Sequence record: PQ850624.1
From: Escherichia phage RuthEpting_Bas85
Reading direction: 5' to 3' (one strand)
Length of the DNA: 44,889 nt
Below the pieces are notes generated by a model, which ran no database searches, was not told where the DNA came from, and saw nothing but the letters and a program-made list of their open reading frames with translations. Shown here piece by piece: positions 1,948 through 44,889 of the stretch. Both the position numbers and the translations under genes were made by a program. Every line of letters starts with the position of its first letter. The first letter of the stretch is position 1.

Positions 1948-3468
1948 ATGACCGTTAACGTTGACAACCAGCACCCACTCTATGCGCGCATCGCGCAGGA
2001 GTGGAAAATGATCCGGGATTGTGTAGCAGGGGAGCGCGCCGTGAAGGCGTGCGGCCCTTTGTACCTCCCTCACCCCGCCAGCGGCGACAATACCGACCCG
2101 AAAGCACGGGCGCGATATAAGGCATATAAACAACGTGCTGTATTCCTGAACGCCACCGCGCGCACGCTTAACGCGCTGTTAGGCGTTGCCTTCGCTAAGC
2201 CGGTTAGCGTGGACCTTACCGGGGCGATGGCTGACCTGATTGATGACGTAGACGGCAGCGGGATGCCACTGGCGCAACTCCTGCGCGGTGCTATGTCTGA
2301 AGTGCTGCAATCGGGCCGCGCGGGCTTTATGGTGGACTACGACCGCCAGGCTAACTTTGATGAACTGGGTAACGTAGTGCCGCAGACCGCCGCCGAGATG
2401 GCGACGCATCGCCCGCTTATCCGCCTGTATACGGCAGAACAGATCATCAACTGGCGGCAGACCCACGGCGTTGATACGCTAATCGTGCTGAAGGAGACGG
2501 ACGAAATCAGCACTGAAGACCCGGACGACTTCGCAAACCACGAAGTAACGATCTGGACCGAGCTTCGCATGGTTGACGGCAAGGCGCACGCCCGCCGCTG
2601 GTTTTACAACGCGGACACGTCCGAGGTGCAAATGGACTTGCCGCGCGGATTCACCCGCACCGACCTTGTGCCGCTAGTGGATGCTGCCGGTCGTGCGCTT
2701 ACTCAACTGCCATTTTGCTGGTGCGGTGCGGTGGACAACAACGCCACGCCGGACGCCGCGCCGCTGGCGGATATTGCATCCATCAACATTAAGCACTACA
2801 ACGCTGAGGCGGACGTCGCCGAGATTGCGCACATCGTGGGCCAGCCTACCCTTGTTGCCACGGGACTGACGCAATCATGGGCGGACAAAAACCTGAAGGG
2901 CGGGATTGCTCTCGGCGCGACTAAGGGCGTTATCCTGGGCCAGAACATGGACGCTAAACTGATTCAGGCCGAGGAGCGCAACTTGTCTGTTGCACTTTGT
3001 GAGCGCCGCGAATTGCAAATGGCTAAACTGGGCGCGGCCCTGGTTGAGAAGGGGACCGCACCGAAGACGGCAACTGAAGCGGCCTACGATGCGCAGACTG
3101 ATAACAGTATCCTGTCACTTATTGCCGGTAACGTTGAGAAGGCTTTCAACCGTGCGCTGCAAATCGTCCAGCTATTCACGGGTGATACCGCGGACCAGCG
3201 CGTAACGTTGAACAAGTTCTACACCGAAATCACGGTTGATGCGCAGCTTATGACCGCAATGATGGCGGGTGTGCAGACCGGTACGGTCCGACTGGCTGAC
3301 TTTATCAAGTGGATGATGGCGCAGGGCGTTATCGACGACTCGCAAACCGTCGAGCAGGTGGAAGACGAATTGCGAAATCAGAATCCATTGCCTCAAATGT
3401 CCCCCGATGCGGTAGAATCTACCGAAGAAGACCCGGACAAGGTAACGGACAATGGCGAGAACAATTAA
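1948..3468 (+). CDS. portal protein
   Basis: 506 aa directly after TerL, RBS AAGGA; size, position and acidic C-terminus typical of portal proteins. Confidence 0.8.
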   Translation: MTVNVDNQHPLYARIAQEWKMIRDCVAGERAVKACGPLYLPHPASGDNTDPKARARYKAYKQRAVFLNATARTLNALLGVAFAKPVSVDLTGAMADLIDDVDGSGMPLAQLLRGAMSEVLQSGRAGFMVDYDRQANFDELGNVVPQTAAEMATHRPLIRLYTAEQIINWRQTHGVDTLIVLKETDEISTEDPDDFANHEVTIWTELRMVDGKAHARRWFYNADTSEVQMDLPRGFTRTDLVPLVDAAGRALTQLPFCWCGAVDNNATPDAAPLADIASINIKHYNAEADVAEIAHIVGQPTLVATGLTQSWADKNLKGGIALGATKGVILGQNMDAKLIQAEERNLSVALCERRELQMAKLGAALVEKGTAPKTATEAAYDAQTDNSILSLIAGNVEKAFNRALQIVQLFTGDTADQRVTLNKFYTEITVDAQLMTAMMAGVQTGTVRLADFIKWMMAQGVIDDSQTVEQVEDELRNQNPLPQMSPDAVESTEEDPDKVTDNGENN

Positions 3469-4555
3469 TCAACATATGGCGGATCGCATGATTCGCCGTC
3501 ACATCTTCACCCAGCGCCTGAGCAATGACCAGGCGCGGCGGGTGTTGGCTATGTGGGAGAAGTTCCGGCCCACGTTACTTGGTAAGCTGACCGAGTTACT
3601 TGATGGCAAAAAGTCCATGAATAACAAGGCACTGACCACTCTGTTAACGCAAATCGACAAGACCGTCAAAACGGAACTGCGCACCGAGTTTAAAGCGCTG
3701 GCTGAAAGCCTTCAGGAGTTCGCCGACACCGAGGCTGATTATCTTGCCGATACATTAACGGCAGCGATCCAGCCAGCGGTCGCCGTACCTGCGGTTGAGG
3801 TAGTTGGCGTTGTGACCGGCGCGCAGATCGCAGCGACGGCTATGAAAAACCCATTCCAGGGAAACACCATGATGCAATGGCCTGATTCACTTTCTGAGTG
3901 GACCAGGACGCAGATCGGTAATCAGGTGCGCGCTGGATTCATCCAGGGAAAGCCGACTATGGAAATTATCGCGGACGTAAGGCGCGCGCTCGGCGGTCGT
4001 AGTGCGCAGGCAATCTCAAGCGTTGTTAAGTCCGCAGTAAACCACTATGCGGCGACCGCCCGCGAATTAATGGTAAAAGCTAATGACGATATTCTCGAAG
4101 GTCGCCAATGGTTGGCTACATTGGATACACACACATCACCTATGTGCCAGCTACGCGATCGCCTGTTTTATCCAGTTGATGTTACTCCCGACACCAAAGG
4201 AAAGCGCGGCGGGAAAGTGGTGGCTGGGACACAATATGGCGCTGGTCCGGGCAAGCTGCATTATTGCTGCCGGTCTACGGAGACGTGGAAAGTCAAAGGC
4301 ATGGAAGATTGGCCCAGTGGTAAGCGTCCGGCACTGAAGGCTGACGCGGGTCGATTGCTGAGTGAGCAGGTCGACGCGCAGACTGATTTCTTCTCATGGG
4401 TACAGCGCCAGCCGCGCCATATTCTGGAGGAATTATATGGGGTGCAGCGCGCAGACCAGATTATGCGCGGCGTGAAAGTGCCGAAGATGTTCACCGATAC
4501 TGGCGAACTAATGACTATCGCACAGATTAAAAACCGGGGGTTATGGCGTGATTAA
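3452..4555 (+). CDS. head morphogenesis protein (Mu F / SPP1 gp7-like)
   Basis: 367 aa overlapping portal end; minor-head-protein-like motifs (WLATLDTHTSPMCQ, Cys-rich C-terminal half). Confidence 0.7.
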   Translation: MARTINQHMADRMIRRHIFTQRLSNDQARRVLAMWEKFRPTLLGKLTELLDGKKSMNNKALTTLLTQIDKTVKTELRTEFKALAESLQEFADTEADYLADTLTAAIQPAVAVPAVEVVGVVTGAQIAATAMKNPFQGNTMMQWPDSLSEWTRTQIGNQVRAGFIQGKPTMEIIADVRRALGGRSAQAISSVVKSAVNHYAATARELMVKANDDILEGRQWLATLDTHTSPMCQLRDRLFYPVDVTPDTKGKRGGKVVAGTQYGAGPGKLHYCCRSTETWKVKGMEDWPSGKRPALKADAGRLLSEQVDAQTDFFSWVQRQPRHILEELYGVQRADQIMRGVKVPKMFTDTGELMTIAQIKNRGLWRD

Positions 4556-4856
4556 ATATGCAGCGATTGGACTGGTTATCGGTCTGGCGGTTGGATTCTG
4601 GCAGGGTGATTCCTACCGCACTGGCGTTGTGGCGAAAGCGGCGCAAGAAGCGCAAGCCGAAGCCCAACGGCAGCAAACTAAGGTTGTAGAGGGGTCGGTG
4701 AAGGCTGAGCAAGCCCGCGACGTGGAATACCGGACTATCACGAAAGAGGTTGTAAAATATGTTACGCGTCCTAACCGTCCTGATTGTAGTTTTGATGCTG
4801 AGCGCGTGCGGATCAAGCAAAGCGCCATCGACGCCGCTAACCGAGTCGGTCTATAG
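4548..4856 (+). CDS. Rz-like inner-membrane spanin (putative)
   Basis: GTG start; N-terminal TM segment (IKYAAIGLVIGLAVGFW) followed by Ala/Gln/Glu-rich coiled-coil region; contains an embedded +1-frame lipoprotein ORF. Confidence 0.5.
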   Translation: MIKYAAIGLVIGLAVGFWQGDSYRTGVVAKAAQEAQAEAQRQQTKVVEGSVKAEQARDVEYRTITKEVVKYVTRPNRPDCSFDAERVRIKQSAIDAANRVGL

Positions 4857-4989
4857 ACCGCCTTGCACCTTTGAGAATGCCTCGGCAGATCCAGACGAGG
4901 ACTTGCTTGTTGATGTTAAAAATATGGAATGCGGGGCTAAGCTGAGGGCGCAAGTGCTGGAGTTGCAGAAAATAATTCGGGGGCCGTAA
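4759..4989 (+). CDS. Rz1-like outer-membrane lipoprotein spanin (putative)
   Basis: 76 aa, RBS AGAGG; signal peptide with lipobox LSAC; Pro-containing mature part; starts inside and extends past the preceding ORF (overlapped Rz/Rz1 architecture). Confidence 0.5.
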   Translation: MLRVLTVLIVVLMLSACGSSKAPSTPLTESVYRPPCTFENASADPDEDLLVDVKNMECGAKLRAQVLELQKIIRGP

Positions 4990-5002
4990 TGGCCCCCTTT
5001 TT
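4979..5002. terminator. bidirectional rho-independent terminator
   Basis: GGGGGCC-gtaat-GGCCCCC followed by TTTTT; sits between convergent genes (Rz1 stop 4989, minus gene stop 5004). Confidence 0.7.
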
Positions 5003-5003
5003 G

Positions 5004-5768
5004 TTAGCGCGGAATACCGCAAATCTCGTTTAACGTCTTCACGTCCAGCGCTACTGCCGTTGACTTCGGCTTGTCCGGGTATGGAATGAACTGTTCAACT
5101 TCAGGCCACGCCGCGATCAGCTTCTTGTCAGTATTGTGCATATCCAGCACGCCGGTAACAGTTAGTTTGAACGCGTCATACTTCGCACGCAATTCACGGC
5201 GGGCCTTGTCGTTGCGGTCCAGTCGCTTGCAGAAATCATGATCTGCCGGGTAGTCTGCGCGACCGCGCGGGAGATATATCGGCAGCGCTTTTCCATCTTC
5301 GTCCACTTCGCACACTGACGCGAGCATAATTTCCTCGTACCCCGGTACAATATCGCTGAGGTCCGGCGCGAGCTTATTCGTATATTTATCTTCCCAGTAT
5401 CCGCGATGAACGCGGTATTTACGACCGTCGCCGCTCAATGACAAGGTGCGAACGTTACCGCCTGCGTTGATTTCGAAAGTGGCGTCATAAACGCTGCCGA
5501 TACCTTTCGGGCGGTCGGTGTTATAGCTATATGTCGCCTTGTTGGTATATACGCTGACGCCGTACATCTGCGACTGGTCATCGCGGATTGATACAATATA
5601 TGCGCGTAGCTCGGCGAACGTGTGAATGCCTTTTGGCATACAGTGCAACGTGATGTCGTACGCCAGGTCGCGAGAGTCCATCATGATTTTTTTGGCTTCA
5701 GTCGCGATTTCGTGGTCGCGCAGGATGTTAGCCAGAATCTGGTTTTTAATGTCTTTTGTCAGTCTCAT
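5004..5768 (-). CDS. hypothetical protein (opposite-strand moron in head region)
   Basis: 254-aa ORF, ATG start with RBS GAGGA; no motif recognised; opposite orientation to the flanking structural genes. Confidence 0.5.
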   Translation of the reverse strand: MRLTKDIKNQILANILRDHEIATEAKKIMMDSRDLAYDITLHCMPKGIHTFAELRAYIVSIRDDQSQMYGVSVYTNKATYSYNTDRPKGIGSVYDATFEINAGGNVRTLSLSGDGRKYRVHRGYWEDKYTNKLAPDLSDIVPGYEEIMLASVCEVDEDGKALPIYLPRGRADYPADHDFCKRLDRNDKARRELRAKYDAFKLTVTGVLDMHNTDKKLIAAWPEVEQFIPYPDKPKSTAVALDVKTLNEICGIPR

Positions 5769-5807
5769 TTTTGTGTCCTCAAGGTTGGGGCTTCCGCCCC
5801 ATTTGGT

Positions 5808-6122
5808 TTAGTTAAACTTGATGTTTCCACCGGTGGAAGTTAAGCGAGCGCATACAGCTTCAACGGCATCGACGCACATGAAATCGTTAAAGGCTTCTAC
5901 CAGGGCGTTGATGAAAGATGCCGGAACCAGGCCACAAGCCGGATTTTCGAAGGTTGCGGAATTGATTGCAGCCTTTGCGGCTTCAGTAGCGTTCATGCTC
6001 TGGCACAGATTCAGCGCTTCCGCGTTACGCATTGCGTGAAAGGTAAAAGTATTGGCTACGGCAGCTTTATTGAAACGGGTCATTGCTGCGTCTACTGGAG
6101 TTGCTACGGTCATGTTATTCAT
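5808..6122 (-). CDS. hypothetical Ala-rich protein (moron)
   Basis: Start chosen at ATG 6122 (MNNMTV...) because of RBS AAGGA 8 nt upstream; ORF track extends to 6173 via TTG; no motif recognised. Confidence 0.4.
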   Translation of the reverse strand: MNNMTVATPVDAAMTRFNKAAVANTFTFHAMRNAEALNLCQSMNATEAAKAAINSATFENPACGLVPASFINALVEAFNDFMCVDAVEAVCARLTSTGGNIKFN

Positions 6123-6158
6123 TTTGTTTTCCTTCATATCTCTGTTGGTGTGCAACCA

Positions 6159-6187
6159 ATATAATGCAACCAATACCCGGATTGCAA
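6159..6187 (-). promoter_or_regulatory. sigma70-like promoter for minus-strand island, overlapped by two TGCAACCAAT motifs
   Basis: Minus-strand reading TTGCAA(6187-6182)-N17-TTATAT(6164-6159); plus strand carries TGCAACCAAT at 6151-6160 and 6165-6174 with a perfect TATAAT at 6160-6165. Confidence 0.4.
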
Positions 6188-6277
6188 GCGAATTTTGCGA
6201 TTATTTTTATCGCTGATAATATTAGAAGCGTGAAGTCGAGCGGGTGGCCCGCTCTGCCACAATCCCAGGGGGATAGC

Positions 6278-6982
6278 ATGAAACTTACTAAAGCAGAATA
6301 TGACGCGTTGCCGGAAAGCATGAAGGCGCTTTTTGTTGCCGACGGCGATGGGTATAAGTCAACATTTATGTCCGCTGACGAAGTACAGGCGGAAATCAAG
6401 GGTCTGAAAGACAACAACGCAAAGCTGGTGAGCGAGAAGAAAGCAGAAGCTGAACGCCGCGCCGAAGCCGAGCGCCTTGCGAAAGAGAAAGAGGACGCCG
6501 CCGCGCGCAAAAATGGCGACCTCGAAGCGATTGATAAGTCCTGGAAGGATAAGTTTGCAAAACACGAAGCAGACACATCGGGGAAAATCGAATCCTATCG
6601 CAAGCAGATCCACGACCTTACTATCGGCAGCGCTGCCAAAGACCTGGCCTCGAAGCTGTTCGGTAAGAATGCTGGCATCATGCAACGCCACGTAATGGAA
6701 CGCCTCGCGCTGGAAGACGGCGAAGACGGCAGCTTGAAAGTGCGCGTCTTGCAGGATGGCAAACCGTCCGCTCTGACTATGGACGAGCTTGAAAAAGAGT
6801 TCCGTAATAACGCCGATTTTGCATCCGTCCTAGCTGGCACGCCAGCCGGTGGCGCTCCGAGCAAACCGACACAGGTTATCGAAGATGCGAAGTCTAAAAT
6901 CACGATGGGCCATAGCTTCGGTATCACCGACCTGACGAAACAGGCAGGGGATATCATCGCTAAGATGGGCGACGACGAGTAA
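6278..6982 (+). CDS. head scaffolding protein (putative)
   Basis: Start at ATG 6278 (RBS AGGGGGA); 234 aa, charged, coiled-coil-like (AEAERRAEAERLAKEKEDAAARK); immediately upstream of major capsid gene. Confidence 0.6.
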   Translation: MKLTKAEYDALPESMKALFVADGDGYKSTFMSADEVQAEIKGLKDNNAKLVSEKKAEAERRAEAERLAKEKEDAAARKNGDLEAIDKSWKDKFAKHEADTSGKIESYRKQIHDLTIGSAAKDLASKLFGKNAGIMQRHVMERLALEDGEDGSLKVRVLQDGKPSALTMDELEKEFRNNADFASVLAGTPAGGAPSKPTQVIEDAKSKITMGHSFGITDLTKQAGDIIAKMGDDE

Positions 6983-9789: not shown

Positions 9790-10211
9790 TGAGCAATACT
9801 CTAATCCGCAAGGCGCTTAACAGCGTAGTTGAAGAATTATCGGTAAGCCTGAGCACTAACCAGCGCCCGATCAAGGTTAACTGGGAGAACGTGAAGGGCG
9901 ACCACGCTATCGGCAATGGCGTGTACCTGGAGCCGTACTTGCTTCCGGCACCGACCCAGTTTGTTGGCATTCAGCAGAAGGGCCGGATCTACGCAGGCGT
10001 GTATCAGGTTGCCGTAGTGTTCCCCGCGGGCACTGGCACACAGTATGCGAGCGAACTGGCGGACGCCATCGCGACGTCAGACAAATGGCAGGGCGTAAAG
10101 ATTACCGGCGCTACCTTCCAGCTTCAGGACGCGCCCTACACCAGTTCGGTGATTGAAGATATCGACCGCGCCCGCATCGTGGTATCGGTCCTGTATAACT
10201 GTTGCGCCTGA
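9789..10211 (+). CDS. tail terminator / tail completion protein (putative)
   Basis: 140 aa immediately upstream of major tail gene; assignment by position. Confidence 0.45.
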   Translation: MSNTLIRKALNSVVEELSVSLSTNQRPIKVNWENVKGDHAIGNGVYLEPYLLPAPTQFVGIQQKGRIYAGVYQVAVVFPAGTGTQYASELADAIATSDKWQGVKITGATFQLQDAPYTSSVIEDIDRARIVVSVLYNCCA

Positions 10212-11748: not shown

Positions 11749-12018
11749 GCGGGACGGATCGGGACGTCCCGCTTTGTCCCGTTTTGTCCCGCCACCTGCA
11801 AAACTGCATACCTACTCACTTTCATTGCATAAACTAAAAGCGGGACGAGCGGGACGTCCCGATCCGTCCCGCCCCCTAAATGTGCATACCTATTCAGATT
11901 TCGTGCATAAAATAAGCGGGACAGAAAGCGGGACAAACATGGGGCGGGACAAAGCGGGACAGCACCCCGTCCCCGTCAGTGCTGCCGCGGGTTTTAGCCG
12001 ATCGGGACAAGCGGGACA
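11749..12018. repeat. iteron array A (GCGGGACA / TGTCCCGC, both orientations)
   Basis: At least 5 exact GCGGGACA copies (11916, 11928, 11944, 11954, 12011) plus GGGAC-core variants; two identical 12-bp palindromes CGGGACGTCCCG (11760-11771, 11850-11861); two tandem ~80-bp units carrying TGCATA...GCATAAA. Confidence 0.8.
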
Positions 12019-12023
12019 AACCC

Positions 12024-12072
12024 CAGTCTTTCAGACTAGACGGGGGTCAATGGCCCCCCTCGTCTGAGACTG
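12024..12072 (+). other. long imperfect hairpin A (conserved copy at 39750-39799)
   Basis: CAGTCTTTCAGACTAGACGGGGG-tcaatg-GCCCCCCTCGTCTGAGACTG; arms identical in the second copy, loop differs. Confidence 0.6.
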
Positions 12073-12140
12073 AATAAGGTTTGTTTGAAATTCGCTGATA
12101 CAATGTCAATCGGCAACTGCATAAAAAAGGGGACTGCATA

Positions 12141-21008: not shown

Positions 21009-21030
21009 GGGGCCATCTGGCCCCTTTTTT
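21009..21030. terminator. bidirectional rho-independent terminator
   Basis: GGGGCC-atct-GGCCCC followed by TTTTTT; between convergent J-like gene and minus-strand gene. Confidence 0.75.
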
Positions 21031-21994
21031 AATAGATGTTAGGGATGACTAATAGCGGGGTGGGTACGGCAATATTTTTGCCCGGCATTTGGAATTGCTG
21101 CCGTGAGTAGTTGCCAATAACGCGGTTTTTAGCGATGCGCACATTATTACCCGCCATTCGTATCCCGTTCATGCGCACATGGTTATAGCCTCCGTTGTTC
21201 TCAATGAGCGCACCGGTATATGAAAGCTGGATCAGACTATTACCGATGTGCTGGTCGCCGCCACCGATATTAATCGTTCGGTCGTAGACAAACGGCTTGT
21301 TTACCGTCGAGAACGTGACCTGCCCCTGGTTGTTAGTCATGGTGATACCGGTCCCCGGTGAGGGCGGCGTATTGTTGAATATGACCAGGTCCATATCAAC
21401 GGCAGCGCCTACGTCGTCAATCCCGCCATAGGACGCATTACGGACAATGATACTTCCGCCATCGAAGCCAACCGATACGTTGCCGTCGTCCCAGCGCGCG
21501 AACGGGACACCGCCGACTGGTAGCGGCATACTTCCGTTTACATGCACGCGCTGCGCATATCGGCACGTCATTAGCCGTGATACGTTGGATATGGCGGTGA
21601 AGTCCGTTGAGTTAGCCACCAGTAAGCCCGCATTGCGTGACCCCACCGGCAGCACTTCCATAATCACCCCGCCCCATGTTGGAAGCCCGCTGTATGCGTT
21701 ATAGGCGTCCTCACCGCGCAAGGTGATTCCGCCATCCCCGTTACGTTGTATCGACGTCACATAAAACGGGTCTGGCAAGACCAGGGTCTGGTCGAATACC
21801 TCAATCACTTCAACCGGATTAGTTAGGGCAACGACCAGTTCGGACCCTGGTGTCAGCGGTGTGTTAATGGACAGCGTCTTGTCAGACTGACAGCGCTGAT
21901 TAAAGGTAGTGCAAAACGACGGAGCGCGAAGGCCCGCGGTTATCTCCATGACAGGTCTACCGTCGTTGTAGTCGATTAATATTCCGGCACCCAT
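21029..21994 (-). CDS. receptor-binding / tail tip protein (putative)
   Basis: ATG at 21994 with RBS GGGAG (ORF track extends to GTG 22003); ~321 aa, Gly/Asn/Val/Ile-rich beta-type composition, no signal peptide; co-oriented with the lipoprotein gene upstream. Function by context only. Confidence 0.4.
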   Translation of the reverse strand: MGAGILIDYNDGRPVMEITAGLRAPSFCTTFNQRCQSDKTLSINTPLTPGSELVVALTNPVEVIEVFDQTLVLPDPFYVTSIQRNGDGGITLRGEDAYNAYSGLPTWGGVIMEVLPVGSRNAGLLVANSTDFTAISNVSRLMTCRYAQRVHVNGSMPLPVGGVPFARWDDGNVSVGFDGGSIIVRNASYGGIDDVGAAVDMDLVIFNNTPPSPGTGITMTNNQGQVTFSTVNKPFVYDRTINIGGGDQHIGNSLIQLSYTGALIENNGGYNHVRMNGIRMAGNNVRIAKNRVIGNYSRQQFQMPGKNIAVPTPLLVIPNIY

Positions 21995-21996
21995 TA

Positions 21997-22218
21997 TTAC
22001 CACTCCCGTGATTTAACTGATACAGTACCGGAAAAATTGCCGTCGCTATCGGCAGACAGGCCAGTGAAGCGCATGTCAACATCTCCGGCAGGGACTTTTT
22101 GCCCGTCAACGTAACGCAACATGCAGCTTCCGTAAGCCACCGTAATGCAATCACCGTTGTTGCGTTCTACAGCACAACCGGACAAAAGGACCGCACAAAT
22201 CATAATTAAAGTTTTCAT
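21997..22218 (-). CDS. Cor/Llp-like superinfection-exclusion lipoprotein (putative)
   Basis: Start at ATG 22218 (RBS GGAGA); 73 aa; signal peptide MKTLIMICAVLLSGC with lipobox LSGC; small Cys-containing mature part; adjacent to tail fibre genes. Confidence 0.55.
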   Translation of the reverse strand: MKTLIMICAVLLSGCAVERNNGDCITVAYGSCMLRYVDGQKVPAGDVDMRFTGLSADSDGNFSGTVSVKSREW

Positions 22219-39535: not shown

Positions 39536-39626
39536 ATTTTGCGCGCATTGGTTGCCAAATTGAGTGTTTTTAGCTGGTCGCATTGGTTGCCGTGTAGTGT
39601 AAATATAGTGAATAGTTATGCAGTTT

Positions 39627-39745
39627 TATTGCATAAAATAAGCGGGACAAAAAGCGGGACAGACAGGGGGCGGGACAAAGCGGGACAGCACCCCTTGTCC
39701 CGCCCGGATGGCGCGGCTTTCAGAGGAGCGGGACAGGCGGGACAA
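39627..39745. repeat. iteron array B (second copy)
   Basis: TTGCATAAAAT followed by six exact GCGGGACA copies (39642, 39654, 39670, 39680, 39728, 39737) and one inverted TGTCCCGC; ~85% identical to 11895-12018. Confidence 0.8.
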
Positions 39746-39749
39746 ACCC

Positions 39750-39799
39750 CAGTCTTTCAGACTAGACGGGGGTCAGTCGGCCCCCCTCGTCTGAGACTG
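39750..39799 (+). other. long imperfect hairpin B
   Basis: CAGTCTTTCAGACTAGACGGGGG-tcagtcg-GCCCCCCTCGTCTGAGACTG; arms identical to hairpin A, loop one nt longer. Confidence 0.6.
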
Positions 39800-40017
39800 C
39801 ATAAAATCCGGGATTGCATAATGTACGGCAGCATGACGTGAATTGCGGTCGTCGACGAACTAGGCAACCAATGCGAGTTGTATTATGGGTGGTGAAAAAT
39901 GCAGTTTGCAGTTACAGCAGATAGCGATCAACTTTTTCATACGCATGATTAATATTGGTTGCATTCAGCCTGGCACCCTGCTAGATTGGTTGCACCCCAA
40001 CGAGAGGACCAAACAAA

Positions 40018-41955: not shown

Positions 41956-41990
41956 AGTCCCAGTGAGCTAAAACTTACTGGGACTTTTTT
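41956..41990 (+). terminator. rho-independent terminator
   Basis: AGTCCCAGT-gagctaaaactt-ACTGGGACT (perfect 9-bp stem) followed by TTTTTT; ends 1 nt before ATG 41991. Confidence 0.7.
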
Positions 41991-42281
41991 ATGGATAAGC
42001 TAAACGAGTGGTTATTCGCCCTCGCGTGTCTTGCAGGTGGCTTCGTTGGCGCTCGCATTCACGGTGAGGCAACGAAAGGGCCGCTAAATTTTGTATTGTT
42101 TATCGTGGTCGGCTTCTTGTGCGCCGTGTTTGGGGCACCAGCTATTGCCGAGTGGTTTAATCTAACCGGACCGAGAACTGTCGCCGGTCTTGGCTTCGTA
42201 ACGGCAATCTTCTGGATGCCGGTCGCCGCCAGAATCCGTGAAGCAATCTCCTCGTTCCGTCTGCCGGGGAATGCAAAATGA
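41991..42281 (+). CDS. holin (putative, three hydrophobic segments)
   Basis: 96 aa; hydrophobic stretches (WLFALACLAGGFVGA, NFVLFIVVGFLCAVFGAPAI, VAGLGFVTAIFWMPVAA), charged C-terminus; upstream of endolysin. Confidence 0.55.
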   Translation: MDKLNEWLFALACLAGGFVGARIHGEATKGPLNFVLFIVVGFLCAVFGAPAIAEWFNLTGPRTVAGLGFVTAIFWMPVAARIREAISSFRLPGNAK

Positions 42282-42517
42282 TTATCGCCATCCTGTTATT
42301 AGTGATCGGGGCTTCGTCGCTGTATAACGTATACGCGCCATCCGTCCAGGATGGCATTTGCGGACGGGTGCTCTACCTGCTTACAGCAATGACCTGTATT
42401 ATTGGCCTGATGCAAACGGGGAACGTATCGAATACAGTCTGGTCCGTGCTAATCTGGCTATTCGCATTACGCACACTGCGTAATGCTGTTTTAAATGGGG
42501 TAAAACATGCGATTTAG
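42278..42517 (+). CDS. second holin-like membrane protein
   Basis: 79 aa, two or three hydrophobic segments; overlaps holin stop and endolysin start. Confidence 0.45.
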   Translation: MIIAILLLVIGASSLYNVYAPSVQDGICGRVLYLLTAMTCIIGLMQTGNVSNTVWSVLIWLFALRTLRNAVLNGVKHAI

Positions 42518-42998
42518 TGACAACGGTCTAAGATTTACGGCAGCGTGGGAGTCGTTCAGCCCAGTGCCGTATTTCGCGACTAAGAAGGAGCAGGCCCGCG
42601 GCTTGTACACCTGGGGCTACGGTCATACTGGCACTAATCCGCCACAGAGCATTACCCGCGCGGAAGCGCTGGAGCTACTCAAGCGTGATGTGGCGTATGC
42701 CGAGAACTGGGTGAACAAGTACGCACACCCGAGCATCAATCAGGCGCAATTCGACGCGCTGGTGGATCTGGTAATCAATGCCGGTCAAGGTCCGATCGTA
42801 CCGGATAACATTGCCAATGACTTCGATGACGCGGTGCGCCTGGGTGATTGGGCCAAAGTCCGTGCTACGCTGCCGCAGTTCCGCAAGCAAGGCGGTGAAG
42901 TGCTCAAGGGCCTGGTACGTCGTGCAATCGGCAGACAGGCGCTATTCGATGGTAAGCAGTGGGACGTTGCCGAGAAAATCGGTCGTAACGCGGCATAA
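42507..42998 (+). CDS. endolysin (lysozyme-type, putative)
   Basis: 163 aa; N-terminal GLRFTAAWESFSPVPY...GLYTWGYGHTG resembles catalytic Glu-containing region of phage lysozymes; downstream of holins. Confidence 0.8.
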   Translation: MRFSDNGLRFTAAWESFSPVPYFATKKEQARGLYTWGYGHTGTNPPQSITRAEALELLKRDVAYAENWVNKYAHPSINQAQFDALVDLVINAGQGPIVPDNIANDFDDAVRLGDWAKVRATLPQFRKQGGEVLKGLVRRAIGRQALFDGKQWDVAEKIGRNAA

Positions 42999-43014
42999 TA
43001 AGAGGAAACACAGT

Positions 43015-43182
43015 ATGTTAAAAAGTATTCTTGATCATAACGCGGACGCGCTTGCCGCACTGGCTAAAACGGAAGACCCAGGCGCGCGCGCCATTATCGC
43101 GGACACTATCAGTCATGCGGGTGTCTTTGACGCGAAGCTGCCAAGCCCGCCACCGCCGGAAGAACCAGGCCCAGCGGCATAA
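43015..43182 (+). CDS. small hypothetical protein (55 aa)
   Basis: RBS AAGAGGA; Pro-rich C-terminus (PSPPPPEEPGPAA); followed by terminator. Confidence 0.35.
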   Translation: MLKSILDHNADALAALAKTEDPGARAIIADTISHAGVFDAKLPSPPPPEEPGPAA

Positions 43183-43187
43183 ACACG

Positions 43188-43212
43188 AAGCCCGGTTAAT
43201 TCCGGGCTTTTT
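43188..43212 (+). terminator. rho-independent terminator
   Basis: GCCCGG-ttaatt-CCGGGC followed by TTTTT. Confidence 0.7.
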
Positions 43213-43217
43213 ATTGC

Positions 43218-43256
43218 TTGACTTGCAACCAACATAGGGGCCATACTGCAACCAAT
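43218..43256 (+). promoter_or_regulatory. sigma70-like promoter overlapped by two TGCAACCAA(C/T) motifs
   Basis: TTGACT(43218-43223)-N18-CATACT(43242-43247); motifs at 43224-43233 and 43247-43256. Confidence 0.45.
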
Positions 43257-44772: not shown

Positions 44773-44889
44773 CCCTCCCAGCCCGCCGATTTGGTGGGCT
44801 TTTTTGTGCCTGTTATAATCCCCCTTAGATGGCTGGGCCGTCTCCTATGTTGCCGATGGTCGGCGCATATGCATAAAAGGGCTTATATC

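Follow-up and report, generated by a model that had tools for sequence, protein, structure and literature searches.

The window analysed here, that is, the whole 44,889-nt stretch of Escherichia phage RuthEpting_Bas85 (PQ850624.1), corresponds to one complete Dhillonvirus genome unit, circular or permuted, and is 98.5% identical to phage Haito_Bas83. Between the head-morphogenesis gene (3452-4555) and the scaffold gene lies a pair of small overlapping genes, named here after the inner-membrane (i-) and outer-membrane (o-) spanins that they very probably encode. The pair, the holin and endolysin genes and the associated hairpins are as follows:

4548..4856, + strand: i-spanin gene (102 aa), GTG start; the product begins MIKYAAIGLVIGLAVGFWQG, with a hydrophobic N-terminal segment
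4548..4555, + strand: 8-nt overlap between the end of the head-morphogenesis gene and the i-spanin GTG start (junction ...ggggttatggcGTGattaa)
4759..4989, + strand: o-spanin gene (76 aa), ATG start; the product begins MLRVLTVLIVVLMLSAC followed by GSS, with lipobox L-S-A-C and Cys17
4759..4856, + strand: 98-nt dual-coding overlap (i-spanin residues 71-102, o-spanin residues 1-33), with the o-spanin in the +1 frame
4979..4997, both strands: G+C-rich hairpin with T-run resembling a bidirectional intrinsic terminator, with the o-spanin stop codon in its loop; a terminator is annotated in MK373791
41956-41985: terminator-like hairpin before the first holin gene
41991..42281, + strand: holin 1 (96 aa), with hydrophobic segments, matching phrog_2359 holin (1.5e-32) and annotated as holin
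42278..42517, + strand: holin 2 (79 aa), matching phrog_2508 holin (2.5e-24) and annotated as holin
42507..42998, + strand: endolysin (163 aa) of the soluble lysozyme type, matching Pfam PF00959 (Phage_lysozyme; 1.5e-21) and phrog_7 endolysin (8.1e-36)
43187..43210, + strand: terminator-like hairpin that follows the lysis cassette, with equivalents annotated as terminators in MK373791
44780-44800: terminator-like hairpin before the terminase gene

The first product of the pair has the predicted topology of an i-spanin, with a single N-terminal transmembrane domain followed by a largely helical periplasmic C-terminal domain. From the N-terminus it consists of a hydrophobic membrane anchor at about residues 2-18 (IKYAAIGLVIGLAVGFW), a long stretch predicted as helix, a loop rich in Pro that holds the only cysteine (Cys80), and a final helix at the C-terminus. 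The anchor is kept in all homologues; it is short (~17 residues), and its best 19-residue Kyte-Doolittle window reaches 1.52, a borderline value under the usual cut-off of 1.6. The residues invariant across three genera are Y23, R24, Q40-R41-Q42-Q43, V68, K70, Y71, C80 and A97-N98. The i-spanin of the window is a 102-aa variant ending in ...RVGL, while most Dhillonvirus relatives carry a 109-aa variant ending in ...GVGTATAVQVR. The GTG start was found at the equivalent position in 16/16 IMG/VR loci, and the ggggttatggcGTGattaa junction was kept in all Dhillonvirus loci examined, an arrangement from which translational coupling of the i-spanin to the head-morphogenesis gene appears likely.

The second product is a small predicted lipoprotein made up of an SPII signal peptide, a lipobox, a Pro-rich linker, two periplasmic cysteines (C36 and C58), an acidic motif (DPDEDL) and a C-terminal helix. 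Its signal reads MLRVLTVLIVVLM-LSAC-GSS. The residue at position +2 is Gly here and G, Q, S or N among all homologues, never the Asp whose absence predicts sorting to the outer membrane. Invariant residues include C17, C36, C58, D44, D46, D48 and L49, among others. Single-sequence AlphaFold2 models of both proteins had a mean pLDDT of ~57 and served for rough secondary structure only; at this low confidence they placed helices at residues 5-72 and 84-99 of the i-spanin and at residues 2-16 and 50-73 of the o-spanin.

Cysteine positions are shared by Dhillonvirus, Jerseyvirus, Kagunavirus and a divergent relative: in the o-spanin that of the lipobox and two in the periplasmic part, and in the i-spanin its only one. 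In the 10-sequence alignments C80, C36 and C58 are invariant. The i-spanin Cys is not universal in the family, because it is absent in Klebsiella phage 37P2, where the o-spanin Cys are retained. Periplasmic cysteines that would permit homotypic disulfides are thus present in both proteins (C80 in one; C36 and C58 in the other), and their conservation in the alignments agrees with the need for disulfides that has been described in two-component spanins.

The lipoprotein gene extends 133 nt beyond the stop of the i-spanin gene, and therefore the architecture is overlapped, by 98 nt in the +1 frame, and not embedded. The initial annotation of this DNA had described an overlapped pair composed of a membrane-anchored protein and an embedded lipoprotein with lipobox LSAC; the anchor, the overlap and the LSAC motif were all recovered, but the term embedded does not apply. 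It had also placed the end of the pair at a terminator, and the o-spanin stop does lie inside the hairpin at 4979-4997, which has a folding energy of -19.1 kcal/mol (z = -2.6 vs shuffles). This hairpin and its T-run are kept in 16/16 Dhillonvirus-type loci, the divergent L019 using a different stem sequence; it is absent from the Jerseyvirus and Kagunavirus loci. Judging from scans for consensus terminators, it would close a packaging, head and spanin transcription unit in which the pair is co-transcribed with the head genes. A sigma-70 promoter scan returned fewer sites than in shuffled sequence and is thus uninformative on transcription units.

The i-spanin matches phrog_2536 'Rz-like spanin' at 5.7e-34, and the o-spanin matches two PHROGs of the same name, phrog_5672 (1.2e-25) and phrog_1267 (2.5e-12). 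The spanins of Jerseyvirus SeF1 were assigned to PHROGs 2536 and 5672, together with holin PHROGs 2359 and 2508 (PMC9409062), and the sharing of 2536 and 5672 with the pair of the window supports its spanin family identity. Kongari et al. (2018; PMC6139136) assigned HK578, JL1, EP23, EK99P-1, SSL-2009a and SO-1 to the Jersey families of i- and o-spanins, and described a shorter 'EP23 to SO-1' Jersey subfamily and its conserved Cys (SpaninDB). HK578, one of these listed members, is 89% identical to the i-spanin of the window, and similarity over the periplasmic domains places both proteins of the window in the Jersey i- and o-spanin sequence families. The Jerseyvirus Shelanagig is more distant (35% identity over 110 aa for the i-spanin and 45% over 78 aa for the o-spanin), and tblastn searches of phage genomes recovered 610 (i-spanin) and 642 (o-spanin) phage records, mostly from Salmonella and Escherichia siphophages.

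Several database records already carry these assignments. Identical coordinates are annotated as i-spanin and o-spanin in MZ501095 (Oekolampad/Bas18), so are the Shelanagig homologues (locus tags CPT_Shelanagig), and PQ850604 labels the o-spanin as 'Rz-like spanin'. In our reading, the pair is very probably the two-component spanin of a Dhillonvirus (HK578-like) coliphage, belonging to the 'Jersey' overlapped spanin family. The anchor, the lipobox, the overlap and the PHROG matches together make the two-component spanin identity proposed earlier a well supported one. The pair was already known and catalogued, and by analogy its products are most likely lysis proteins that disrupt the outer membrane. 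We found no functional test of any Jersey-family spanin in the literature.

The holins and the endolysin were located where the initial annotation had put them, at 41.99-43.0 kb, and the endolysin is without an N-terminal hydrophobic or SAR segment, a Kyte-Doolittle value of 1.6 being reached by none of its 19-residue windows. From these genes the same annotation had derived a displacement of the spanins by ~37 kb. Such a figure holds in the linear coordinates of the window, but it results from the circular map having been opened at the start codon of the terminase small subunit; on the circular map the shorter path, from the endolysin stop (42998) across the junction to the i-spanin start (4548), measures ~6.4 kb and contains seven genes, all on the same strand. 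In vB_EcoS_WFI, a 99.5%-identical relative with another origin, holins and lysozyme occupy 2294-3301 and the i-spanin starts at 9987, on the same strand and 6.7 kb downstream. The genes lying between lysozyme and i-spanin in that genome are a hypothetical ORF with a Big_2 domain, an exonuclease, a small ORF, terminase, portal and head morphogenesis.

Even over this shorter distance the spanins do not form a contiguous holin-endolysin-spanin cassette within one transcription unit, for seven genes, 6.4 kb and hairpins intervene; in the terminator scan, the hairpins at 41956-41985, 43187-43210 and 44780-44800 together set the cassette apart from the spanin-containing unit. Of the two alternatives raised at the outset, a split of the lysis functions across the genome is well supported, with the spanins outside the holin-endolysin cassette. 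A genome-wide search, including the vicinity of the endolysin, found no rival spanin. The 40-aa ORF past the endolysin (43115-43237) is free of hydrophobic segments and matched no PHROG. When the 2094 candidate ORFs of both strands (minimum length 30 aa, each possible start codon counted separately) were screened for a strict lipobox, only two were retained, the o-spanin and a Cor-like ORF at 21997-22218 on the reverse strand. The latter, which lies next to the tail-tip gene, was rejected as a spanin, being without an overlapping anchored partner.

In Dhillonvirus, Jerseyvirus and Kagunavirus alike the pair follows the head-morphogenesis gene, and representatives of all three genera show the placement between head-morphogenesis and scaffold genes that was first noticed here. 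K1G repeats the synteny of head morphogenesis, spanins and scaffold, with holin, holin and endolysin a few kb upstream of terminase, and Shelanagig keeps the same order from head morphogenesis to scaffold. Hence the layout is not a peculiarity of this genome and was already present in GenBank and in the spanin database paper. With the pair already catalogued and the gap only ~6.4 kb on the circular map, we regard the finding as an ordinary one. On the placement of spanins among the head genes of Jersey and Dhillon phages, the literature searched provided gene lists only (P78_0040, SeF1 Gp_009/010 and Golestan ORF7/8), without comment or experiment. The placement at the end of the terminase-portal-head unit might be functional and not historical: coupling could link the amount and timing of spanin to the making of capsids, apart from the holin clock, or the pair could have a second role in the envelope. 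We give this reading little probability.

The other alternative raised in the initial annotation, a different role for the pair, found no support. The best placed version of it, albeit an improbable one, is an envelope-modifying or superinfection-exclusion module that, in the manner of Cor, Llp or Imm, would block DNA entry or a receptor and have no part in lysis. Such a module would be in keeping with the distance from the holin and endolysin genes, with the frequent action of small phage lipoproteins in exclusion, with the lack of homology to experimentally verified spanins and with a weak match of the o-spanin to phrog_6561, of the PHROG 'moron' category (E = 0.0026). However, full-length homologues occur in canonical lysis cassettes, namely those of the lambdoid Klebsiella phage 2 LV-2017 (Q antiterminator, lysozyme, spanin) and of Vibrio phage pYD38-A (endolysin, holin, spanin), each with an overlapping +1-frame lipoprotein gene encoding two periplasmic Cys. 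Moreover, an obligate overlapped combination of anchored protein and lipoprotein with conserved periplasmic Cys is the signature of spanins, the locus beside the tail-tip gene, where exclusion functions usually lie, already encodes a Cor-like lipoprotein together with a membrane protein, and the phage would be left without any spanin if the pair were not one.

A service in head assembly, for instance as a membrane-tethered assembly factor, would account for the conserved site between head-morphogenesis and scaffold genes in three genera and for the 8 nt by which the i-spanin start overlaps the preceding head gene. We consider it very improbable, since the lipobox and the N-terminal anchor direct the bulk of each protein to the periplasm, whereas capsids assemble in the cytoplasm. 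In addition, homologues in other phages have no head genes beside them and are found within lysis cassettes, and in Dhillonvirus a terminator and an island of reverse-strand genes separate the pair from the scaffold gene.

That one or both ORFs are chance reading frames, as the 'hypothetical protein' label of the i-spanin in the closest GenBank record, the absence of the o-spanin ORF from the annotation of several relatives (e.g., WFI and rolling) and the GTG start might suggest, is refuted by the selection analysis and deserves almost no credence, the missing o-spanin calls being a known gene-calling artefact (196 unannotated o-spanins were counted by Kongari et al., PMC6139136). Purifying selection acts in both reading frames among 16 related genomes: dN/dS in the unique parts is 0.13 for the i-spanin, against 1.25 and 2.33 in control frames, and 0.11 for the o-spanin, against 4.7 and 5.3. 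Starts, stops and motifs are kept in every locus examined, down to 33-45% identity. Both ORFs are real genes. Within the overlap, dN/dS rises from 0.29 (i frame) through 0.87 (o frame) to 3.5 (third frame), and therefore the C-terminus of the i-spanin dominates the constraint and the signal peptide and linker of the o-spanin tolerate change.

For a spanin pair of this kind, we infer a mechanism by analogy with lambda Rz/Rz1, including topology, complex formation, membrane fusion and co-transcription. The 102-aa product would be held in the inner membrane by its N-terminal anchor, exposing a mostly helical domain of ~80 residues to the periplasm. The 76-aa product would be lipidated at Cys17 and, given that position +2 is Gly and not Asp, delivered by the Lol pathway to the inner leaflet of the outer membrane. 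Homotypic disulfides may form via C80 of the i-spanin and C36/C58 of the o-spanin, and the C-terminal domains of the two proteins would bind each other in a complex that crosses the periplasm by threading the peptidoglycan mesh. Release of the soluble endolysin by the two holins would be followed by degradation of the murein; no longer confined, the complexes would then move freely and fuse the inner membrane with the outer, which would remove the final barrier to virion release. The two spanin genes come at the end of the terminase-portal-head-morphogenesis unit, where the terminator would close it, and their translation is probably coupled to that of the head-morphogenesis gene. In this reading, placement outside the cassette is tolerable because intact peptidoglycan keeps spanins inactive, so that their late accumulation suffices.

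The import of these results beyond annotation hygiene is small. Correct i- and o-spanin calls could be propagated to the records that have a 'hypothetical protein' or omit the o-spanin. For the engineering of Dhillonvirus and Jersey-type phages and for lysis-gene mining, it may be useful to consider that the outer-membrane step is encoded ~6-7 kb from the holin-endolysin cassette, in the head gene block. As the Jersey family extends to more than 600 phage genomes, a complementation test of one pair would bear out many annotations at once.

The experimentally tested two-component spanins with embedded or overlapped genes named by Kongari et al. (2018; PMC6139136) are those of lambda, T7 and P2. 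No sequence homology to tested spanins was detectable with Pfam, NCBIfam or, for lambda Rz/Rz1, hhalign. Pfam PF03245 (Phage_lysis) and PF06085 (Rz1) gave no match at E <= 0.1, which leaves the pair outside the lambda sequence family, and hhalign comparisons of the 10-sequence alignments with lambda Rz and Rz1 returned probabilities of 0.6% and 5.3%. In the Pfam and NCBIfam scans of both proteins nothing was significant, the best matches being DUF6919 (E = 0.015) and P2_Rz1 (E = 0.032), both below cut-offs. Membership in P2_Rz1 is unsupported because the match reached 14.4 bits for a cut-off of 27.

The description of the pair as Rz/Rz1-like is therefore true of architecture only. With lambda it shares a type II inner-membrane protein with a helical periplasmic domain, a +1-frame outer-membrane lipoprotein, periplasmic Cys and a presumed fusion mechanism. 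It differs in being overlapped where the lambda genes are embedded, in not being contiguous with the holin and endolysin genes, and in having a shorter i-spanin (102 vs 153 aa) and a longer o-spanin (76 vs 60 aa). The LysB/LysC pair of P2, experimentally tested (Kongari et al. 2018; PMC6139136), is likewise overlapped with the o-spanin in the +1 frame, but its genes are within the lysis cassette. PseT.3/PseT.2 of T4 offer a parallel in genes unlinked from holin and endolysin (PMC6139136, Fig. 8 legend), in similar protein sizes (117 and 83 aa in T4) and in an o-spanin with a predicted C-terminal helix. The T4 genes, however, have a 'separated' architecture and belong to a different sequence family, and all lysis genes of T4 are dispersed, whereas here holin, holin and endolysin form one cassette and only the spanins stand apart. 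With the 'EP23 to SO-1' subfamily of Jersey spanins, finally, the pair shares overlapped genes, an o-spanin that is read in the +1 frame and has two constant periplasmic Cys, a short i-spanin consisting of a linker and two predicted helices, and sequence homology to the Jerseyvirus and Kagunavirus members, and nothing material differs.

The ORF pair at 4548-4989 is very probably a two-component spanin, and it is already known, having been catalogued and annotated before. The overlap between an anchored protein and a lipobox-bearing lipoprotein, as well as the terminator at which the pair was said to end, were both confirmed by reading the sequence:

4548-4856, + strand: i-spanin ORF (candidate inner-membrane subunit), GTG start, 102 aa, with the N-terminal hydrophobic segment MIKYAAIGLVIGLAVGFW
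4759-4989, + strand: o-spanin ORF (candidate lipoprotein subunit), ATG start, 76 aa, N-terminus MLRVLTVLIVVLMLSAC followed by GSS: lipobox-bearing signal peptide, Gly at +2
4979-4997, folding on both strands: hairpin followed by TTTTT, with the o-spanin stop codon inside the loop

The two ORFs share 98 nt, the o-spanin being read in the +1 frame and extending 133 nt beyond the i-spanin end, so that spanin terminology calls the lipoprotein gene "overlapped" and not "embedded", as the initial annotation had it. The hairpin has a folding energy of -19.1 kcal/mol (z = -2.6 relative to shuffled sequence). A terminator directly 3' of the o-spanin was kept in all 16 related IMG/VR loci, retrieved with the head-morphogenesis protein as query, but is absent from Jersey and Kaguna phages, and is thus Dhillonvirus-specific.

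In PHROG searches, the i-spanin matched phrog_2536 (5.7e-34) and the o-spanin phrog_5672 (1.2e-25) and phrog_1267 (2.5e-12), all three labelled "Rz-like spanin". Neither protein was detectably homologous to lambda Rz/Rz1 or any Pfam/NCBIfam spanin model. The tblastn hits covered 610 phage records for the i-type protein and 642 for the o-type, mostly from Salmonella and Escherichia siphophages. The "Jersey" overlapped i-/o-spanin families include HK578, JL1, EP23, EK99P-1, SSL-2009a and SO-1, and the shorter "EP23 to SO-1" subfamily has two helices and two constant o-spanin Cys (Kongari et al. 2018, PMC6139136). Single-sequence AlphaFold2 models, of low confidence (pLDDT ~57), placed helices at 5-72 and 84-99 of the i-spanin and at 2-16 (signal) and 50-73 of the o-spanin, in agreement with the published secondary structure. 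Our literature searches found no functional test of a "Jersey"-type spanin.

The GenBank annotation of Oekolampad/Bas18 (MZ501095) gives the i-spanin at 4548..4856 and the o-spanin at 4759..4989, exactly the same coordinates. Labels differ between near-identical genomes: BASEL Bas18 names both genes correctly, Haito_Bas83 (PQ850604) has a "hypothetical protein" for the i-spanin and "Rz-like spanin" for the o-spanin alone, and the o-spanin gene is uncalled in vB_EcoS_WFI (MK373791) and "rolling" (MN850575).

Both ORFs occupied the equivalent position in 16/16 IMG/VR loci, and in each the i-spanin GTG overlapped the end of the head-morphogenesis gene. The substitution pattern establishes both as genes under purifying selection, with the i-spanin C-terminus as the more constrained partner in the shared DNA.

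Pooled Nei-Gojobori dN/dS for 15 ungapped Dhillonvirus loci and the window, leaving out a divergent relative (L019)
i-spanin unique part: coding frame 0.13; control frames 1.25 and 2.33
o-spanin unique part: coding frame 0.11; control frames 4.7 and 5.3
Overlap: i-spanin frame 0.29; o-spanin frame 0.87

Aligning the pair with its homologues from Shelanagig (Jerseyvirus), K1G (Kagunavirus) and a divergent IMG/VR relative (33-46% identity) left as invariants the anchor, the QRQQ motif, V-K-Y, a single Cys (C80) and A..AN within the i-spanin, together with the lipobox Cys17, P-C36, D-x-D-x-D-L, N..C58 and L-R..V..L-Q in the o-spanin. A homologue in Klebsiella phage 37P2 (Guernseyvirinae; 2757-3143) lacks the otherwise invariant periplasmic i-spanin Cys, RVHLVFDAERV replacing ..C.F...RV, while its o-spanin retains both Cys, which suggests that the o-subunit alone may satisfy any disulfide requirement. 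Within Dhillonvirus, the i-spanin C-terminus has two length variants (4840-4856 and homologous sites), one of 102 aa with the end ...RVGL and one of 109 aa with the end ...GVGTATAVQVR. These co-occur with two forms of the o-spanin linker, KAPSTP...VYRPPCTFENA and NVPLMP...ALRPPCKFDNP, whose coding DNA is the same or lies just downstream.

Contextual support for a lysis role comes independently from homologues inside canonical lysis cassettes. The lambdoid Klebsiella phage 2 LV-2017 has a full-length homologue of the i-spanin (37% identity over 108 aa) directly after the lysozyme gene and downstream of the Q antiterminator; it is overlapped in the +1 frame by a lipoprotein gene with lipobox LCSC and APC...DSDEDL...C. 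Vibrio phage pYD38-A has the order endolysin, holin, spanin, the last a full-length homologue with an overlapping lipoprotein ORF carrying two periplasmic Cys.

When all candidate ORFs of 30 aa or more in the window were scanned under strict lipobox criteria, a single lipoprotein came up besides the o-spanin, at 21997-22218 (- strand; 73 aa, MKTLIMICAVLLSGC...). Its matches are to phrog_4281 and, weakly, to a Cor superinfection-exclusion family, so that the scan leaves the phage with no alternative spanin. This ORF adjoins the tail-tip gene on its downstream side, beside a 321-aa "moron" membrane protein (21029-21994, - strand; phrog_1265); given the Cor-like match and this neighbourhood, the two probably form a receptor-blocking exclusion module.

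The holin, holin and endolysin genes were found at 41991-42998, as initially placed. The endolysin has no hydrophobic N-terminus and is accordingly a soluble, holin-dependent enzyme. The spanin pair is indeed outside any contiguous lysis cassette, but the reported displacement of 37 kb, true in window coordinates, is an artefact of linearisation. Megablast with 4300-5100 gave 156 matches, nearly all to Dhillonvirus (HK578-like) coliphages, with 100% identity to Haito_Bas83, whose circular record (44,876 bp) aligns with the window end to end (98.5% identity); the latter is therefore a single whole genome unit, its map having been opened at the small terminase gene's start codon. On the circular map, only 6.4 kb separate the endolysin stop (42998) from 4548, with seven + strand genes (a 40-aa ORF, exonuclease, a small ORF, terS, terL, portal and head morphogenesis). 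The segment is continuous in vB_EcoS_WFI (99.5% identical in the region; different origin), with holins and lysozyme at 2294-3301, terS at 5440 and the i-spanin at 9987, and its terS is preceded by a spacer of 117 nt, as long as the stretch remaining at the window end. In WFI the endolysin is followed directly by an ORF of 137 aa that carries a Big_2 (bacterial Ig-like) domain (MK373791 3318-3731), whereas in the window (43000-43240) all that lies between the endolysin and the terminator is an ORF of 40 aa; by this comparison, the 3' end of the cassette is a variable slot.

The unlinked position recurs in related phages. Kagunavirus K1G has holin-holin-endolysin at 39.6-40.6 kb, the terminase spanning the origin and the spanins (4663-5158) immediately ahead of the scaffold gene, which they also precede in Jerseyvirus Shelanagig (6023-6518). 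Published gene lists separate spanins from lysis genes in SeF1 (Gp_009/010 versus Gp_063-065), Golestan (ORF7/8 versus ORF66-68) and P78 (0040 versus 0031-0033). Judged from these layouts, the arrangement is conserved in the whole phage group and probably ancestral.

The spanin terminator and the scaffold gene are separated by a variable, Dhillonvirus-specific reverse-strand island (5004-6137), absent from Jerseyvirus and Kagunavirus, with an Nmad5 (nucleotide-modification-associated domain 5) gene (Pfam 7e-56) and a 109-aa ORF; in some relatives (phage rolling) the terminator is immediately followed by an inserted gene of 513 nt, labelled "DNA polymerase III beta subunit". Self-comparison also revealed a ~200-bp internal repeat (86% identity) between 11882-12077 and ~39608-39804 (39595-39791 in the comparison genome L001), joining a small tail-module ORF just before the tape-measure gene with an early-region hypothetical gene; it may reflect duplication of a small gene.

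The spanins probably belong to the packaging/head transcript, bounded by the hairpins 44780-44800 and 4979-4997. By analogy with lambda, both subunits would accumulate during late expression and connect inner and outer membrane across the murein mesh, acting only once the holins free the endolysin. As peptidoglycan itself would restrain them, co-regulation with the holin would be unnecessary and an unlinked position tolerated. The spanins PseT.3/PseT.2 of T4 are likewise unlinked and offer a textbook precedent (Kongari et al. 2018, PMC6139136).
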